A program made the translations under genes and the position numbers. This document shows positions 54,619 to 61,844 of a DNA stretch of 64,000 nucleotides, one piece after another. The notes under the pieces were generated by a model, which was given only the letters and a program-made list of their open reading frames with translations, had not been told where the DNA came from and made no database searches. Numbering within the stretch: position 1 is the stretch's first letter; every line of letters starts with the position of its first letter. The DNA comes from Candidatus Multivorans sp. (lineage in GTDB: Bacteria; Acidobacteriota; Thermoanaerobaculia; Multivoradales; Multivoraceae), in assembly GCA_965247095.1 (NCBI GenBank), contig OZ251997.1:2400001-2464000 (forward strand), given 5' to 3'.

Positions 54619-54682
54619 ACAAGGCGCGCGTCCCTTTCAGTTCGGCCGCAACGACGGAGCGTATGACAGGATCCCCGGCATC

Positions 54683-55570
54683 ATGACCATACAAGCCGCT
54701 TCCGAAACGCGCCCAGATTGGACGCCCACCGCAGCCCCCATCGAGATCCGACCTCTGACCCCCCATATCGGCGCGGAGATCGAGGGAGTCGACCTGTCCC
54801 AGCCGCTCTCGCAGTCGCAGAAGGACGACATCAGGCGGGTCTGGCTGGAGTGGCAGGTGCTGGTTTTTCGTGACCAGGAGCTCACCCGCGAGCAGCACAA
54901 GGACTTCGGCCGTTCCTTCGGCCCGCTGCACGTCCACCCGCTGCACAAGAGCTCCGAGTACAAGGGCGGGCACGACCCGGAAATCCTTGTCGTCAAGACC
55001 ACGCAGAAGTCCAGGTACACGGCGGGCGACGGTTGGCATACGGACGTGTCGTGCGACGAGGAACCGCCGATGGCGTCGATGCTCTACATCAAGGAGATTC
55101 CCGAGTGCGGCTCGGGAGGCGACACACTATTCGCCGACATGTACCGCGCTTATGAGACGCTATCGGAGCGGATGCAGCAGTTTCTCGAAGGTCTGGTAGC
55201 GGTGCATGACGGTGCGCTGCCCTACATCGGCAAGTACGGCTACGCAGCTCCCGATGGAAAGGCGTACCCGAAGACCGAGCACCCGGTGGTGATCCGCCAT
55301 CCCGAGACCGGCCGCAAGGCCCTGTTCGTCAACAGCGGCTTCACGTCGCACATCCGCGGTCTGCGTCGATGGGAGAGCCGGGGTCTACTCGACATGCTCT
55401 TCAGGCACATCGCTACAACAGTCTCGCTGACCTGTCGCGTGCGCTGGGAGCCCAACACGCTCACCCTCTGGGACAACCGCTGCACGCAGCATCATGCCGT
55501 GTGGGACTACTACCCGCAGTCGCGCTTCGGCGAGCGGGTCTCGATCGTGGGTGATCGGCCGGTCGCTTAA
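54683..55570 (+). CDS. TauD/TfdA family dioxygenase (copy 1)
   Basis: IGAEIEGVDL, WHTDVS (HxD), GGDTLF, HPVV..HPETG, WDNRCTQH. Confidence 0.93.
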   Translation: MTIQAASETRPDWTPTAAPIEIRPLTPHIGAEIEGVDLSQPLSQSQKDDIRRVWLEWQVLVFRDQELTREQHKDFGRSFGPLHVHPLHKSSEYKGGHDPEILVVKTTQKSRYTAGDGWHTDVSCDEEPPMASMLYIKEIPECGSGGDTLFADMYRAYETLSERMQQFLEGLVAVHDGALPYIGKYGYAAPDGKAYPKTEHPVVIRHPETGRKALFVNSGFTSHIRGLRRWESRGLLDMLFRHIATTVSLTCRVRWEPNTLTLWDNRCTQHHAVWDYYPQSRFGERVSIVGDRPVA

Positions 55571-55839: not shown

Positions 55840-56130
55840 TCAACCAAGCTCGCCCGTGGCGTACTTGTGAAGGATGCTGGAAATGAGAGTCTGGTACGGC
55901 ACTCCTTCGCGGGCCGCCAACCGCTTGATTTCCACCAGGTCGTGACTCGGCAGGCGGATGTTGATTCGCTTGTCCTTTCGAAGCGTCTCGCGGGCCGCGG
56001 ACTCCAGCCTGGCGACGTCCCGAGAAGAGCCCGAGGCTCTTCGGAGACGTCCTTGCTCGTAGGCCCTCAGGATCTCGCGCTCCTCAGGGTCGAGTGCTGC
56101 TGAATCGGGCTTCGTCGTGCGTTCGGTCAT
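55840..56130 (-). CDS. BrnA/CopG-like antitoxin
   Basis: LDPEEREIL, KDKRINIRL..DL..IK..A..EG.PYQTLISSILHKY. Confidence 0.88.
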   Translation of the reverse strand: MTERTTKPDSAALDPEEREILRAYEQGRLRRASGSSRDVARLESAARETLRKDKRINIRLPSHDLVEIKRLAAREGVPYQTLISSILHKYATGELG

Positions 56131-56136
56131 GGCTCG

Positions 56137-56412
56137 TCACCTCGCCCTCAGGTACTTCTTCGTCGCCTTCCGGCTCGGGATGATCGTCTTGAGGAAGAAG
56201 TCGCCTGCTTCCGTCTCCACGTAAGGAACCAGGTAGGCGTACTCCCCGATCTCGATCACGGCAATCCGCTGGTGTGGCCGTTTCGGATCCGGATGGTCGT
56301 AGATGTCGACCAGCGCACCCGATTCGATCAGTGTCGCCACCTCCTCGAAACTGACGCCCCGCTCCGCGATCAAGCGTCTGTTCTTCGCAGGATCCCAGAG
56401 ACAACGGCTCAT
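56137..56412 (-). CDS. brnT: BrnT family toxin
   Basis: WDPAKN..L..ERGVSFEEV, HP..RPHQR, YAYLVPYVE, FLKTIIPSRKATKKY. Confidence 0.88.
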   Translation of the reverse strand: MSRCLWDPAKNRRLIAERGVSFEEVATLIESGALVDIYDHPDPKRPHQRIAVIEIGEYAYLVPYVETEAGDFFLKTIIPSRKATKKYLRAR

Positions 56413-56588
56413 ACTTGATCGGAGCTGATTGTCGCCGATTGTATGCCGATCGTCAACAGCGGCCGCAACCAAACAGGAAACGGCCCAGACCGATGTCCGG
56501 GTCAGACTCCTGCAACACGGCTTCGGCCGCTGCCGGTATACTCCGCCGCTCGACAGCGGTCGGCACCGAAGCCGCGGCCCGAATCCGC

Positions 56589-56665
56589 GTCCCCATCGTC
56601 TAGCCAGGTCAGGACTCCAGCCTTTCAAGCTGGCAACACGGGTTCGAATCCCGTTGGGGACACCA
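56589..56665 (+). tRNA. tRNA-Glu (TTC)
   Basis: GTCCCCA/TGGGGAC acceptor stem, CCAGC-CTTTCAA-GCTGG anticodon arm, GGTTCGAATCC T-loop, encoded CCA; TATACT -10 upstream. Confidence 0.96.
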
Positions 56666-56970
56666 TCGCGCCTGCCGGCACGATGCTGGCCCCAGCGGGA
56701 TTCGGTCGCCGCGCCTCGCCTACGGCTCGGAGCGCTGGGTCGTATCCCCGTTTGGGGACACTGCGCTGCCGCCGGGCGCGATGCTGGCCCCAGCGGGATT
56801 CGGTCGCCGCGCCTCGCCTGCGGCTCGGAGCGCTGGGTCGTATCCCCGTTGGGGACACTGCGCTGCCGCCGGGCGCGATGCTGGCCCCAGCGGGATTCGG
56901 TCGCCGCGCCTCGCCTACGGCTCGGAGCGCTGGGTCGTATCCCGTTGGGGACGCCATCGCGCCCGCCGGC
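56666..56970 (+). repeat. Three ~97-98-bp tandem repeats, each ending in a copy of the tRNA 3' end
   Basis: GATGCTGGCCCCAGCGGGATTCGGTCGCC recurs at 56682, 56780 and 56877; each unit ends GGGTCGTATCCC(C)GTT(T)GGGGACRC. Confidence 0.9.
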
Positions 56971-57007
56971 TGAGTCTCTCGGCGTCAGGCCGGTACAGAA
57001 CCCGCAC

Positions 57008-58018
57008 CTACTTCGGAGGCGTTGGGGGATTGGCCGTCCTGTCCATCAGGTCCACCAGTTGCAAACGGTACTCGTCCTCGACGGCAGCGGCAAAGTGAAT
57101 GGCAGAATCGCTCGACTCAATTCTCGCGAGTACGGCCTCGTAGGCGCGACGGCTCGGGAACCTCAGGATGCGATAGTCGTCCCAATCTCGCCCGTCGCCG
57201 ACCAGAACACCGGCGACTTCCGCTTTGAGCATCGGCTCCACGCCGGCCTCGTGAAGACTTCCCTCCAGAGATTTCCAAAACACGTCCATCGCTTCGCGTC
57301 CACTCCGTTGGGGTTCGCTGCTGCCTTCGGGGTACTCGGCGACGGCGCGATACTTCACCAGATGAAAGAGAGTAAAGGACGGGTCGTCGGCGGACGCCGG
57401 ATGGGGAACGTCGGCCGCGGTGACCGGAGGCTTATCCGAATACGTCCAATCTTCTTCGGGTATCGTGACGATGATCTGGGACGCGGCGAGGCTTGGGCCT
57501 TTGTGAACGACGGTCTCTTGGAAACCCGCGCTCGCCCTCATTTGCGCGATCTTCGCCCGACTCGGATACATGACGATTCCGACCCGATCCCACGTCGGAT
57601 CTTTGCCTACGAGCTGCGCTTCGACGCTGCCGGCGTAAACTAGCCCGCCGCCCACTTTCTCAACTTCCGGTAACGGGTTGTACAGCCTGTCGGCTTCTTC
57701 GCCCGTCAGGTTCGTCTCGCGCCCGTCGGGATATTCGGCCTTGTCCCGGTACTTCATGAGGTTGAGCATGTACAACATTCCGTCCTGAGCCGGCGGAACG
57801 ATCATGAAACTTGCCGCGTTCGGGTTCAGGGTCCCGAAGCTGGGATCGGGAGTTTGGGCCTTGCTGATCGCGCCGTCGCTGTCGGCGTCGCTAGCTTCGA
57901 AGACCTGCTGAGACGACTGCGCAAACACGGGCGGAGAGAACACCGCGGTCCCGATCGCCACGATGAACATCCCAAAGATCGAAAGAAAGTTGATAACGCT
58001 GGAGCGGTCGTCAGTCAT
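57008..58018 (-). CDS. Secreted protein with EF-hand-like loop and two DUF1330-like domains
   Basis: DADSDGAIS; MLNLMKYRDKAEYPDG...WDRVGIVMYPSR repeated as LFHLVKYRAVAEYPEG...WDDYRILRFPSR; RBS AGAGGAG. Confidence 0.78.
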   Translation of the reverse strand: MTDDRSSVINFLSIFGMFIVAIGTAVFSPPVFAQSSQQVFEASDADSDGAISKAQTPDPSFGTLNPNAASFMIVPPAQDGMLYMLNLMKYRDKAEYPDGRETNLTGEEADRLYNPLPEVEKVGGGLVYAGSVEAQLVGKDPTWDRVGIVMYPSRAKIAQMRASAGFQETVVHKGPSLAASQIIVTIPEEDWTYSDKPPVTAADVPHPASADDPSFTLFHLVKYRAVAEYPEGSSEPQRSGREAMDVFWKSLEGSLHEAGVEPMLKAEVAGVLVGDGRDWDDYRILRFPSRRAYEAVLARIESSDSAIHFAAAVEDEYRLQLVDLMDRTANPPTPPK

Positions 58019-58119
58019 GATGATTCTCCTCTTGGTGATGGATCGTGAGCTGGCACCCGCCGCCGACCGGTGACCGCGTGGTGGGGGGGTGTAGCGACGA
58101 GATCGCGCAGGGCCGCAGC

Positions 58120-60042
58120 TCACGTCGCGCTGATCCTGCGCCCTGCGGCACTGGCGAATTCGTTGATCCCGATCTCGTGTCGAAGGTCCGCCGAGCGAAG
58201 ATCGAGCTCTTCGCCGAGGGGGATCCCGATTCCGTCGGCGATGCGAACCATGCGCTGAAAGTTCGCGATGACGGCGGCGACGTCGACGACCGCTGCATCT
58301 CCCAACGACTTCTGGACGGCGTCGCGGGCCTGTGTCACCTCCGGTGACCGGGCAACTACCGCATCCGCGTAGGCGATCAACTCTGCGCCATACGCCACCC
58401 CGGTCACTTGATCGCTGGCACCCCTAGTGATCGCCTCGAAGTCCACATCGCTGCCCTGACTGCTCGCCCGGAGCATCTGTGCGTGTGCGGTCGTTCAGTA
58501 GAAGCACTCGTTGAGGGCGGATAACCGGCCGGCGACCAACTCCGTCTGCCTGCGGTCCAGGCTGCCAGACTTTGGGTTGTGACCCGCCAGGTAGAAGGGA
58601 AACAGAAGGTCGAGCAGATTACGCAGGGCATCGGGCACGAGGGACATGGCCCGAATCACGTTCGGCACGAAGCGACGGGAAGCGGGAAGCCGATCGTAGA
58701 CGTCGGCTTCGTTCTCACCCTCGCCATCGTTGGGGATCATGGGAACCCAGGCGCCATCGTCGACGGCCTCCGCGGGTCGGTAGCGGGTAGGTTCACCGGC
58801 CCGCACCTCCGGGAGCGGAAGCAGCGGGAACTCCAGAGCGTCGCAGAAGGCGTCGATCCCCATCACCGTGCCCCAGTTGAGCATGGACCACATGGACTTC
58901 CGCTCCATCATCTTCTTGAAGTGGGCAGCACCGTTCATTTCCGGTACTCGTCCCACCCCTGGGCCCATGTCCGGGAGGACCGGGAAACCGGCTTCGACCC
59001 GGAAGTCGAAGCTCTGCGACCGAGGTAGACCGCACTCCACGTCGTCGCACGCTTGCCAACGGACCCTGCCGCTGATGTCGACATAGCGCTTGCCGTCGGC
59101 CTTCTGCATGGCTCTGCCGTTTTGTGCGATCGGTAGCCGCAGCACCACGTCGCCCTCGTAGACTTCGAGGGTGTCGCCGGACCCGGCGAGGGTCAACCTC
59201 GAAGTAGGCGGTGCAACCAGAGCGCGGCTGATGATGCCGGGAGCGTCGTCGACTTCGATCGTGGCAGCCACCAGGCCGTCCGGTACCGGCTCGCCGTAGA
59301 GATGCTGCCCTTCCGGTACCCGAAAGGTCGCGACGATCTCGTGAAAGACGCCCGAGAGCAGCCGGTCGGCGTCGAGGATCACGTCGACACTCACCTGCTC
59401 CGCCGGGCTTGCCGCGGGCTCCACCTCGAACCTCCGGCCGAGAGCAGCGTTGAGGAGCTGCTCGGGTCCGAATCTCGCACCAAAGTTGCGGTCGAAGAAC
59501 TTGGCGACGATGATGCCGTCGGCATCGATCGCGTAGGCCCCGGGAAAGGGGATCCCGTACCAGGGGTGCTCGTCCGGCGGGATGAGCGTGTTGAGGATCC
59601 CGAACGCTCGAATCACCTCGCTGTTCGGGTCCGACAGCATGGTGAAAGTGACCCCCATGGCATTGGAGTAGTCGGCGAGCGCATCGACCTCGTCATAGGT
59701 CAGGGTGTAGAGCTTGACCCCGGCGGCATCGAAAGCGGCCATTCCTCGCTCCAGCTCGACCAGCTGGGTTCGACAGGGGGGTCACCACACCGCTGATCGG
59801 GAGAAGACCAGGACCGCCGGTTGGCCGCGGCGGTCCGCATGCAGGTCGATCGAGCGACCGTGTTGGTCGATCGCGACCACCTCGGGTAGTCGCGTGCCGA
59901 CCTCGGGACCGTTCGGAAAGTCACCGAGGGGAATGCGACGGGATCTCGTGTTGGGAGCCAACGGCATGAGGAAGCCGTCGGCGTCGGCGAAGTAGCCGGG
60001 GGGGCCGGCCTCACGGCCTCGCGTATCTACTCTGATGTCCAT
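58120..60042 (-). CDS. Putative two-selenocysteine protein: peroxiredoxin-like (UxxC) + DsbD-N-like + AhpD-related (CxxU)
   Basis: Three same-frame ORFs separated only by TGA at 59782-84 (SAVW-U-PPCRTQL) and 58495-97 (NECFY-U-TTAH); hairpins follow both; middle domain has HLY and QACDDVEC. Confidence 0.75.
58461..58475 (-). promoter_or_regulatory. SECIS-like hairpin for second Sec
   Basis: UGCUC-CGGGC-GAGCA starting after a 19-nt spacer 3' of UGA. Confidence 0.6.
59751..59767 (-). promoter_or_regulatory. SECIS-like hairpin for first Sec
   Basis: CCAGCU-GGUCG-AGCUGG starting after a 14-nt spacer 3' of UGA; G first in apical loop. Confidence 0.65.
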
Positions 60043-60145
60043 TCGCGCACTCTACAGCGCGACGAGAAGCAGCATCCCGGCGAGCTGCTCCACCCCTGGC
60101 GCCGCCGCCGCGCCCGGTAGCGCGGACGCTCTAGATGGACGCTAC

Positions 60146-60907
60146 TCAGTTCCACCAGGCCTTGTCGGAGTAGGCACGCACGTCCAACTCGAAGGTCCAG
60201 GTGGACCGATGCTGTCGGACGAGATGGAGGTAGGTCTCCGCCACCTGCTTGGGCAGGATGAGGCCGTCGGCCGCTCCCTTCGTGTTCCGGAGAGCCTCGA
60301 ACCGCTCCGGCCCAAGCATCTTGCCTAGCGTGTCCGGTGCATCGACCGATCCATCCACGAGCACATGAGCCACATGAATTCCCCTTGCGGCGAACTCGGC
60401 GTTCAGCGTCTGGCAGAGCATGCGGCGTCCCCCCATCGCGGCCGCGTGGGAGTGCTGTCCTGCATTGCCGCGCGCCGCGGCTGTGGCCGAGGTGACGATC
60501 AGCGTTCCATGGCCACGCTCAGCCATGCGGGGGCAGACCGCGGAGGCTGTCCGGAAGAGGCCGAACGTGGCCATGCGCCAGCCGAGCTCGAAGGCCTTGT
60601 AGCTGGTATCGGCGAGCGCCCGATCGCCGATCTGGGCGCCGAGGTTGTAGATCATCACTTCGATCGGCCCGATCTCCTCCTCCACCTGGGCAATCTGATC
60701 CTCGATGGCGTTCTCCTTGACGGCGTTCAGGAGAAAGCCGGACGCATCCCCTCCCTCCTCGTGAATGCCGGCGACCAGAGCGTTCAGCCCGTCTTCGTCG
60801 CTCCGGCGACAGAGAACCGCGTGGTACTCCTCGCGAGCAAACCTTCGGCCTGCGGTACCACCGATCCCGGCGCCGGCGCCCATGACAAAGCAAACTGGTT
60901 TCATCAT
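60146..60907 (-). CDS. SDR family oxidoreductase (atypical, HxxxM)
   Basis: GAGAGIG, YNLGAQIG, TSATAA, HAAAMGG, HVAHVLVDG, WTFELDVR; RBS GGAGG. Confidence 0.9.
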   Translation of the reverse strand: MMKPVCFVMGAGAGIGGTAGRRFAREEYHAVLCRRSDEDGLNALVAGIHEEGGDASGFLLNAVKENAIEDQIAQVEEEIGPIEVMIYNLGAQIGDRALADTSYKAFELGWRMATFGLFRTASAVCPRMAERGHGTLIVTSATAAARGNAGQHSHAAAMGGRRMLCQTLNAEFAARGIHVAHVLVDGSVDAPDTLGKMLGPERFEALRNTKGAADGLILPKQVAETYLHLVRQHRSTWTFELDVRAYSDKAWWN

Positions 60908-60944
60908 CCTTCCTCCATGAGTGGACAGCGGAGCGTATGACAGG

Positions 60945-61844
60945 ATGACCGGCACCACGACCGTACAAGCCGCTTCCGAAACGCGCCCTGACTGGACGCC
61001 CGCCGCAGCCCCCATCGAAATCCGACCTCTGACGCCCCATATCGGCGCGGAGATCGAGGGAGTCGACCTGTCCCAGCCGCTCTCCCAGTCCCAGAAGGAC
61101 GACATCAGGCAAGCCTGGCTGGACTGGCAGGTGCTGGTCTTCCGTGACCAGGAACTCACCCGCGAGCAGCACAAGGACTTCGGCCGGTCCTTCGGCCCGC
61201 TGCAGGTCCACCCCCTGCACAAGAGCTCCGAGTACAAGGGCGGGCACGACCCGGAGATCCTCGTCGTCAAGACCACCCAGAAGTCGAAGTACACGGCGGG
61301 CGACGGCTGGCACACCGACGTGTCGTGCGACGAGAAGCCGCCGATGGCGTCGATGCTCTACATCAAGGAGATTCCCGAGTGCGGCTCGGGAGGCGACACG
61401 CTCTTCGCCGACATGTATCGCGCCTACGAGACCCTCTCGGAGCGGATGCAGCAGTTTCTCGAGGGTCTGATCGCGGTACATGACGGTGCGCTGCCCTACA
61501 TCGGCAAGTACGGCTACGCGGCTCCCGATGGAAAGGCGTACCCGAAGACCGAGCACCCGGTGGTGATCCGCCATCCCGAGACCGGCCGCAAGGCCCTGTT
61601 CGTCAACAGCGGTTTCACCTCGCATATCCGCGGTCTGCGACGATGGGAGAGCCGCGGTCTGCTCGACATGCTCTTCGAGCACATTGCCACCACAGTCTCT
61701 CTGACCTGTCGCGTGCGCTGGGAGCCCAATACGCTTACTCTCTGGGACAACCGCTGCACCCAGCATCATGCCGTGTGGGACTACTACCCGCAGTCGCGCT
61801 TCGGCGAGCGGGTCTCGATTGTGGGTGACCGGCCGGTCGCCTAG
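60945..61844 (+). CDS. TauD/TfdA family dioxygenase (copy 2)
   Basis: Same motifs as copy 1; about 10 amino-acid differences counted by eye. Confidence 0.93.
   Translation: MTGTTTVQAASETRPDWTPAAAPIEIRPLTPHIGAEIEGVDLSQPLSQSQKDDIRQAWLDWQVLVFRDQELTREQHKDFGRSFGPLQVHPLHKSSEYKGGHDPEILVVKTTQKSKYTAGDGWHTDVSCDEKPPMASMLYIKEIPECGSGGDTLFADMYRAYETLSERMQQFLEGLIAVHDGALPYIGKYGYAAPDGKAYPKTEHPVVIRHPETGRKALFVNSGFTSHIRGLRRWESRGLLDMLFEHIATTVSLTCRVRWEPNTLTLWDNRCTQHHAVWDYYPQSRFGERVSIVGDRPVA

Follow-up and report, generated by a model that had tools for sequence, protein, structure and literature searches.

A stretch of 64,000 nucleotides from the genome of Candidatus Multivorans sp. (contig OZ251997.1, positions 2,400,001 to 2,464,000; hereafter the window) carries three open reading frames (ORFs) on its minus strand, at 59782-60042 (86 aa), 58495-59742 (415 aa), and 58120-58476 (118 aa). 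These raise the question of whether the locus holds three small genes or a single gene in which two TGA codons are read as selenocysteine (Sec, U), and, in the latter case, how such a gene arose and what its product may do. A first-pass annotation of the window had proposed that the three ORFs share one frame and are separated by TGA only, which was confirmed by the ORF list and by translation with TGA read as Sec. Positions 60042 to 58120 formed one 640-codon frame, and its only non-standard steps were U87 within A-V-W-U-P-P-C, U516 within N-E-C-F-Y-U-T-T-A-H, and a terminal TGA at codon 641. The locus is probably a young chimeric selenoprotein gene that originated from an adjacent gene pair by one deletion, with a 640-residue protein containing two Sec residues as its likely product.

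Two selenocysteine codons in one reading frame

The features of the frame are given below; gene 1 part and gene 2 part denote the portions that correspond to two separate genes in related genomes (the split loci).

58120..60042, minus strand: whole fused frame, 640 sense codons (two TGA read as Sec) and the terminal TGA
59503..59901, minus strand: peroxiredoxin (Prx)-like domain (AhpC/TSA, thioredoxin-fold), residues 48-180; PF00578, 85.6 bits, cut-off 26
59782..59784, minus strand: TGA codon 87 (Sec), in W-U-P-P-C
59751..59767, minus strand: selenocysteine insertion sequence (SECIS)-like hairpin 1, 6-bp stem, GGUCG loop, UGA-to-loop spacing 20 nt, -8.8 kcal/mol
59005..59343, minus strand: DsbD_N-like domain, residues 234-346; PF11412, 33 bits, cut-off 25
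58870..58896, minus strand: fusion junction, a 27-nt filler encoding residues 383-391 (SMWSMLNWG), delimited by DNA comparison with the split loci
58150..58869, minus strand: AhpD-related part, residues 392-631; NF041238, 267.4 bits, cut-off 175
58186-58761, minus strand: AhpD core, about residues 428-619, mapped from structure matches to the model of an intact orthologue
58495..58497, minus strand: TGA codon 516 (Sec), in the C-F-Y-U-T-T-A-H motif at 58483-58506
58458..58477, minus strand: SECIS-like hairpin 2, 5-bp core at 58461-58475, CGGGC loop, UGA-to-loop spacing 24 nt
58120..58122, minus strand: terminal TGA, the true stop, followed by no hairpin that complies with the bacterial SECIS (bSECIS) model

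The curated domain models PF00578 and NF041238 each run across a TGA, and the continuity of the frame across these codons is therefore not a matter of chance. The Prx-like domain was also matched by PF08534 (50.1 bits, Pfam). This first module had been described as peroxidase-like, a description that fits it less well, because it lacks the T-x-x-U/C peroxidatic motif of Prx selenoproteins proper, for which TxxU is given in the accessible text of a 2026 review (PMC13188914), and instead carries A-V-W-U-P-P-C, a WUxxC motif of the CxxC type. On the basis of its motif, it is better called a Prx-like thiol:disulfide oxidoreductase than a peroxidase, and it would act as the former. The DsbD N-terminal-like domain that had been predicted between the TGAs was recovered together with its Cys pair, C332/C337, which lies in QACDDVEC (residues 330-337, window 59032-59049) and was invariant in 31 of 31 aligned family members; no other DsbD domain was found in the Pfam scan of the fused protein. 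The gene 2 part matched NF041238 (NCBIfam "alkylhydroperoxidase-related (seleno)protein," model AhpD_rel_CFYUT, 357 profile positions) over profile positions 111-357 only, so that the match was not full-length and did not include the N-terminal lobe, and it matched the Pfam family CMD at residues 492-527 (26.7 bits, cut-off 23). Its CFYUTTAH sequence (residues 513-520) has the C-x-x-U followed by a His (H520) that characterizes an AhpD core. The frame contained three redox pairs: U87/C90, C332/C337, and C513/U516.

An exhaustive HMMER search against 1.84 billion representative proteins yielded 4308 matches at E ≤ 0.001, and the best 150 of these representatives, together with the proteins P0002 and P0003, formed the set of 152 that was compared by BLASTP. 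The check proposed in the first-pass annotation, namely whether Cys aligns at both TGAs, gave a positive answer in this set: Cys stood opposite U87 in 39 of the 45 read-through homologues (W in two, S in two, V and D in one each) and opposite U516 in 16 of 17 (G in the other). Fifty-six of the 152 proteins began within a few residues past site 1, as would gene calls cut at a TGA; three ended at site 2, and another three began just past it. Six-frame searches of related genomes identified an aligned TGA in all 20 orthologue or paralogue loci at site 1, and the aligned site-2 position was likewise TGA in 20 of 20 family loci. Ratios of non-synonymous to synonymous substitution rates (dN/dS) between diverged orthologues (dS ≥ 0.12) were 0.09-0.24 across the gene 1 part, the stretch past UGA-87 included. 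For the 108 codons past UGA-516, dN/dS was 0.14-0.51 (nine pairs, dS up to ~1.1), compared with 0.14-0.39 for the codons upstream; this purifying selection on the downstream codons indicates that UGA-516 is read through in this orthologue group despite its modest hairpin. The Cys alignments, the conserved TGAs, and the domain models thus identify both TGAs as Sec codons in the redox motifs of two recognized selenoprotein types, as had been proposed.

The window's genome (4.62 Mb, one contig) encoded the complete Sec machinery. All four components scored above their cut-offs, with 339.3 bits for selB (cut-off 242.25), 439.5 for selA (267.9), 260 for selD (125), and 74.1 for the tRNA-Sec (selC) in Rfam (47); ARAGORN also reported a tRNA-SeC with the anticodon TCA. 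Hence, none of the three circumstances that had been named as speaking against Sec (missing machinery, homologues ending at the TGAs, and the lack of an aligned Cys) was encountered.

In the bSECIS model, as given in the accessible part of the review, a loop of 3-9 nt with G at position 1-2 closes a stem of 4-16 bp, with a UGA-to-loop spacing of 16-37 nt and a minimum free energy of ≤ -7.5 kcal/mol (PMC13188914). The first-pass annotation had placed a short hairpin with a G-containing loop behind each TGA; both were located, and their stems start 14 nt (site 1) and 19 nt (site 2) past the TGA, as claimed. Hairpin 1 satisfies all four bSECIS constraints, and its closing pair, C-G in most orthologues, is G-C in the paralogues of ~39% identity and in locus L073. 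Hairpin 2 fits in loop, stem, G, and spacing, although its folding energy of -4.9 kcal/mol (-5.1 with two pairs past the bulge) falls short of the -7.5 threshold, so that the earlier claim holds at this site only for a weak hairpin. Paralogues and distant members of the family keep a 6-8-bp hairpin at the equivalent place of site 2 with differing arm sequences (CUGCUC/GAGCAG in the paralogues and GACCUC/GAGGUC in other families of the order), and the encoded residues differ. None of the 500 synonymous-codon resamplings made for each site reached the folding energy summed over the 14 site-1 or the 30 site-2 sequences, a count that does not translate into a probability since the sequences are related. 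The window's own hairpins were unremarkable in such resamplings (fractions of 0.148 at site 1 and 0.612 at site 2), and the split orthologues in genomes G012 and G010 had much the same weak site-2 hairpin (0.57-0.60). Single-sequence folding of the 60 nt past each Sec TGA was uninformative in this GC-rich DNA (z of -0.58 and -0.32), and an Rfam scan of 56000-60400 returned a single tRNA above threshold and nothing at the hairpins. Each UGA has nevertheless retained its own downstream hairpin, and SelB with tRNA-Sec can therefore decode both. On the other hand, the 60 nt after the terminal TGA folded worse than 200 of 200 shuffles (z +2.66).

The window's genome (G000) contains other genes of this kind. 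A full-length NF041238 paralogue with a TGA is located at G000:C1:5995-6687 (43% identical) and a further Prx-like paralogue with a TGA at G000:C1:776238-776741. Several such TGA-containing paralogues were present in nearly every sampled genome of the genus, which appears to be rich in selenoproteins.

Origin of the fused frame from two adjacent genes

In a six-frame search of 61 related genomes, a full match to residues 1-640 with both TGAs was obtained in three only, the window's own genome (G000), G036, and G026, at 98% identity. Four other genomes (G034, G012, G010, and G021; 90-93% identity) gave two separate matches, to query residues 1-383 and 391-640, in different frames. In G034, gene 1 is 383 residues long when its start is taken as the one that aligns with the start in the window (385 in the ORF listing, which starts two codons upstream) and ends with TAG; a 16-nt spacer separates it from gene 2, which has 372 residues, starts with MTRAIF, and contains a CxxC near residue 53. 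When the DNA of the fused allele was compared with that of the split loci, the last sense codon of gene 1 was followed by 27 nt without a counterpart and then by codon 123 of gene 2. This comparison demonstrates, at the level of aligned DNA, one deletion of about 390 bp that removed the stop codon of gene 1, the 16-nt spacer, and the first 122 codons of gene 2. No second copy of the filler was found in the genome at up to 5 substitutions or in eight related loci at up to 6. Throughout the family, the 122 residues that are missing here are conserved; they correspond to the unmatched NF041238 positions 1-110. The split arrangement is therefore the ancestral one, from which the fused arrangement arose by deletion.

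The lost region was examined in an AlphaFold2 model of the intact gene 2 protein of G034, built from a 23-sequence alignment (predicted local distance difference test, pLDDT, 91.4; predicted template modelling score, pTM, 0.92), in which the breakpoint falls inside the helix 111-134. VIA-align matched residues 1-340 of the model to Sestrin2 (5dj4_B; Z 17.4, root-mean-square deviation 3.3, 238 aligned residues, 7% identity), whereas AhpD-core structures of ~186 residues matched residues 159-351 (6k40_A, Z 14.0; 2oyo_A, 13.9; 2prr_A, 13.8), and Foldseek concurred on the AhpD-core matches. For helical proteins, Z values up to ~13 can be generic; the AhpD-core matches are barely above this level and are supported by the sequence families. 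According to the model, the deletion took the N-terminal lobe of a two-lobed sestrin-like fold and left the whole AhpD core with C513, U516, and H520. The lost 122 residues include a CxxC in 17 of 22 aligned members from outside the window, as well as the near-invariant W25, Y114, and E116.

The fusion appears to be confined to three near-identical genomes of uncultured Acidobacteriota. None of the 152 retrieved proteins spanned the junction. A word-indexed search of 5.8 billion proteins returned two relatives of 352-1122 residues, both consisting of Prx and DsbD_N without the AhpD part. A query that straddles the junction matched 16 loci in a pattern scan of one genome for each of 185,579 species; only two of these were contiguous across the junction and, by their positions, appear to be the G026 and G036 loci. 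In an even sample of 401 genomes of the phylum, residues 230-640 had a contiguous match in G000 only. The search for full-length three-domain homologues that the first-pass annotation had called for thus found none beyond the three genomes. That annotation did not recognize the architecture; it does not represent an evolved three-domain family, but a young deletion chimera of two adjacent genes present in three genomes. The flanks compared were also 96-99% identical among the three, and the fusion is therefore one recent event. The arrangement of the two genes was compared over 26 loci, which represent 18 distinct places.

3 of 18 loci: fused arrangement (G000, G036, and G026)
4 of 18 loci: gene 1 followed by intact gene 2 (G034, G012, G010, and G021)
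5 of 18 loci: gene 1 with no gene 2 in the fetched flank (1.5-3 kb); one is frameshifted near residue 345
6 of 18 loci: gene 2 not preceded by gene 1 (upstream flank of ~2.6 kb in most), including metagenome-assembled genomes (MAGs) titled Myxococcota and Dehalococcoidia

These counts indicate that only a sub-clade of the genus has the two genes side by side. Orthologues of gene 2 were 76% identical in the Myxococcota MAG, 68% in the Dehalococcoidia MAG, and 88% in another Thermoanaerobaculia record, which suggests that gene 2 is horizontally mobile and has spread across phyla. Intact stand-alone gene 2 orthologues with a TGA were observed at L069 (2701-3870), L071, and L068. Locus L069, from the Myxococcota MAG, had been a candidate for a junction-crossing match (query residues 27-101) and was rejected, as its gene 2 orthologue is intact, stands alone, and is not preceded by a Prx gene.

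Variation was also observed in the gene 1 family. Two database proteins, P0003 (617 aa) and P0013 (616 aa), are tandem duplications of the Prx-like plus DsbD_N unit. P0003 starts directly past the UxxC position of its first unit, likely through a gene call cut at the Sec TGA, and D and S replace the two redox residues in its second unit. The gene 1 orthologue of genome G002 (L031/L074) matched in two frames, with a shift near residue 345-347, just past the DsbD_N Cys pair; this shift is a frameshift or an assembly error.

Fate and possible function of the chimera

AhpD reduces AhpC, and DsbD-alpha reduces thioredoxin-fold partners of the AhpC/TSA-Redoxin type. The chimera differs from both relays: AhpC and AhpD are separate Cys proteins, and DsbD-alpha is membrane-anchored, periplasmic, and Cys-based, whereas the modules of the window's protein would share one soluble-looking chain with Sec in two of its three redox pairs. 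The ancestor of the chimera was the adjacent pair that is still present in the sister genomes. Its gene 1 (383 aa) encoded a cytoplasmic-looking Prx-like thiol:disulfide oxidoreductase with Sec-x-x-Cys and a DsbD_N-like domain with Cys-x4-Cys, and its gene 2 (372 aa) an AhpD-related selenoprotein of the NF041238 family with Cys-x-x-Sec...His in the C-terminal lobe of a two-lobed sestrin-like fold. The ~390 bp deletion, patched by the 27-nt filler, placed the remaining parts in frame, and SelB-dependent insertion of Sec at both UGAs would give the 640-residue protein, with the third UGA as terminator. In this protein, the Cys-x4-Cys pair of the DsbD_N-like domain may shuttle electrons to or from the Prx-like module, and the tethered AhpD core (CxxU...H) may act as a further donor or acceptor. 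The chances are roughly even that the full-length protein is made and that electron exchange persists between its AhpD core and the other two modules, DsbD_N and Prx-like. More tentatively, the chimera could be a functional selenium redox relay complete in itself, in which tethering replaces the lost N-terminal lobe and electrons pass from C513/U516 via C332/C337 to U87/C90 within one chain or a dimer; this proposal is rather unlikely to be correct.

Two explanations would dispense with the chimera altogether. If the standard annotation were right, the TGAs would be stops and the locus would hold two or three separate small genes or fragments. Translation under genetic code Table 11 does split the frame into three ORFs, as the first-pass annotation had expected, and many database homologues are cut at these positions. 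However, the domain models span both TGAs, Cys aligns at both, the Sec machinery is complete, and purifying selection acts past UGA-516 and across the gene 1 part including the stretch past UGA-87, which makes this reading very improbable. A mis-join in one assembly could be suspected since the genomes are metagenome-assembled, yet the identical junction occurs in three separate genomes, and single contigs from four runs of four studies cross it with 0-1 differences, one of these contigs possibly being the source of the window. Sixteen public run rows contained half or more of the sampled words of the junction stretch, all 20 rows with matches came from nine studies, and no RNA run was listed among the public runs that contain it. 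The fused allele is thus real, and an assembly artefact is scarcely credible.

The other two explanations accept the chimera and differ in its fate. Several observations weigh against a functional two-Sec product, and most of them favor a neutral or decaying chimera, in which gene 2 was crippled by the loss of its N-terminal lobe and its own start, and the AhpD part is a passenger on a working Prx-like/DsbD_N protein that persists because it is recent. The deleted lobe is conserved throughout the family and was modelled as one unit packed with the core (pTM 0.92), and its loss may destabilize the AhpD part. At site 2, the hairpin is weak, and its stability does not exceed that of synonymous resamplings of the window sequence. 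Gene 2 is dispensable in relatives, as gene 1 stands alone in 5 of the 18 distinct loci, and the intact NF041238 paralogue could make its loss tolerable. Adjacency of the two genes is not widely conserved; both occur in 7 of the 18 loci only, which weakens the case for an obligate partnership. The fused clade is also so shallow that selection since the fusion cannot be measured from the sequences compared. On the branch to this clade, the AhpD part had 11 synonymous and six non-synonymous changes (I>F, L>V, V>L, V>A, V>L, and E>D, all conservative) and the gene 1 part seven and three; within the clade, the AhpD part had 0 synonymous and 1-2 non-synonymous changes and the gene 1 part 0-5 and 1-6. 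The branch includes time before the fusion, and its counts therefore cannot show selection after it. In contrast to what decay would predict, the frame, both TGAs, and all six redox residues were intact in 3 of 3 fused genomes, with neither a frameshift nor a TAA or TAG stop; relative to the split orthologues, the AhpD part has a one-codon gap. The changes on the fused branch were mostly synonymous or conservative, the complete AhpD core of ~190 residues was kept, a unit that is a stand-alone protein in solved structures, and the allele was present in runs of several studies. As judged from these sequences, the fused allele has not decayed; a decaying passenger is a serious but less probable explanation. 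Alternatively, an AhpD core of about 256 residues with one Sec may also, or instead, be started at an ATG in the filler. The stretch 58891-58906 has a GGAG that a 9-nt spacer separates from the first of the in-frame filler ATGs, and many solved structures are of stand-alone AhpD-core proteins of about 185-190 residues. On the other hand, this proposal depends on pattern matching only, the native gene 2 start in the split loci also has no obvious Shine-Dalgarno motif, and, with the stop of gene 1 lost, ribosomes that start upstream have to continue to codon 516 or 641 anyway; two products are consequently improbable. Unless the filler ATG serves, expression of the AhpD part now depends on passage of UGA-87, because the start of gene 2 is gone. 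The two-Sec chimera remains the preferred explanation, and whether its AhpD part still works is about evenly balanced, because the conserved CxxC lobe and its own start are gone and an intact paralogue exists elsewhere.

Known selenoproteins and the genomic neighbourhood

Both halves of the chimera belong to catalogued selenoprotein types. The Prx-like thiol:disulfide oxidoreductase with PF00578 and UxxC is listed as a selenoprotein type in the review (PMC13188914) and corresponds to "Prx-like 1" in the Global Ocean Sampling (GOS) survey (PMC2398784), as far as the accessible text of both extends. The window's protein shares with these proteins the AhpC/TSA fold, a WUxxC where homologues have WCxxC, and a bSECIS hairpin; the window's protein and a family of homologues add a C-terminal DsbD_N-like domain, and the window's protein further adds the AhpD core. 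With the NF041238 family, it shares the C-F-Y-U-T...H motif, the TGA position, and the hairpin distance, but differs in being without the N-terminal lobe (122 residues, usually with CxxC) and in being fused behind another selenoprotein. The likeness to Sestrin2 (5dj4) is one of fold only and concerns the intact gene 2 orthologue, whereas the window's protein, without its N-terminal lobe, is no longer two-lobed. The accessible text of the review counts 119 selenoprotein families or subfamilies, "a small subset" of which has two to three Sec residues, including an arsenite methyltransferase/AhpD-domain protein and a rhodanese/DsbD fusion-like protein with UxxxxU (PMC13188914). These catalogued fusions resemble the chimera in having more than one Sec in a single chain made of joined redox modules, among which an AhpD CxxU and a DsbD-like x4-spaced pair occur. 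However, they have other partner domains and form curated families, whereas the window's fusion is restricted to three near-identical genomes. The models of double or triple selenoproteins (NF041212, NF047649, NF045648, NF041536, NF041537, and NF045694) were absent among the 15 NCBIfam families matched at E ≤ 0.1.

No description of a Prx-like/DsbD_N/AhpD double selenoprotein was found in the literature searched, in which the table of the review was partly covered, and no literature on "Candidatus Multivorans" was found. Genes for Prx-like and AhpD-like selenoproteins are said in the accessible part of the review to cluster in operons, with the GOS survey as the source (PMC13188914); this could not be confirmed in the main text of that survey, where the word "operon" occurs 0 times (PMC2398784). 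As far as sequence comparison indicates, what is new at this locus is a clade-restricted, deletion-born two-Sec chimera that joins two catalogued types.

Bacterial proteins with more than one Sec are rare, and the locus illustrates one route by which they originate, with the states before and after preserved in sister genomes. It can also serve as a natural experiment on the chaining of two SECIS-dependent UGA decodings within one bacterial message, and an active product would link two abundant selenoprotein families of unknown physiological partners. If the relay were real, it would provide a natural, datable example of the origin of a multi-Sec protein and a Rosetta-stone link between the Prx-like UxxC and the AhpD-related CxxU families. 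For annotation, standard pipelines would split the locus into three fragments, and many database homologues are visibly cut at these TGAs.

The neighbouring features in the window suggest no specific pathway.

60921-61844, divergent from the short-chain dehydrogenase gene: TauD-family dioxygenase
60146-60910, minus strand: short-chain dehydrogenase, upstream of the fused gene
57008-58018, minus strand: 336-residue ORF directly downstream of the fused gene, hydrophobic in a segment at its N-terminus and unmatched in Pfam at E ≤ 0.001
56589-56665, plus strand: tRNA-Glu (anticodon TTC)
56137-56400, minus strand: BrnT-like small ORF; Pfam BrnT_toxin, 42.8 bits, cut-off 34.5

BrnT_toxin is the ribonuclease toxin family of a type II toxin-antitoxin pair. 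In G034, a tRNA-like sequence closely follows gene 2 and no long ORF was listed between them, although no search was aimed at the 336-residue ORF. A direct repeat of at least 300 nt and 93% identity, at 54655-54954 and 60929-61228, was estimated at about 570 nt by BLAST against related loci, and its second copy lies within the TauD-family gene. The two copies bracket a segment of ~6.3 kb that contains the BrnT-like ORF, the tRNA-Glu, a set of 97-nt repeats, the 336-residue ORF, the fused gene, and the short-chain dehydrogenase gene. The 97-nt repeats are three in tandem directly after the tRNA-Glu (56649-56940, 86-100% alike), the first of which overlaps the 3' end of the tRNA, and they may be a trace of repeated integration or excision at the tRNA site.

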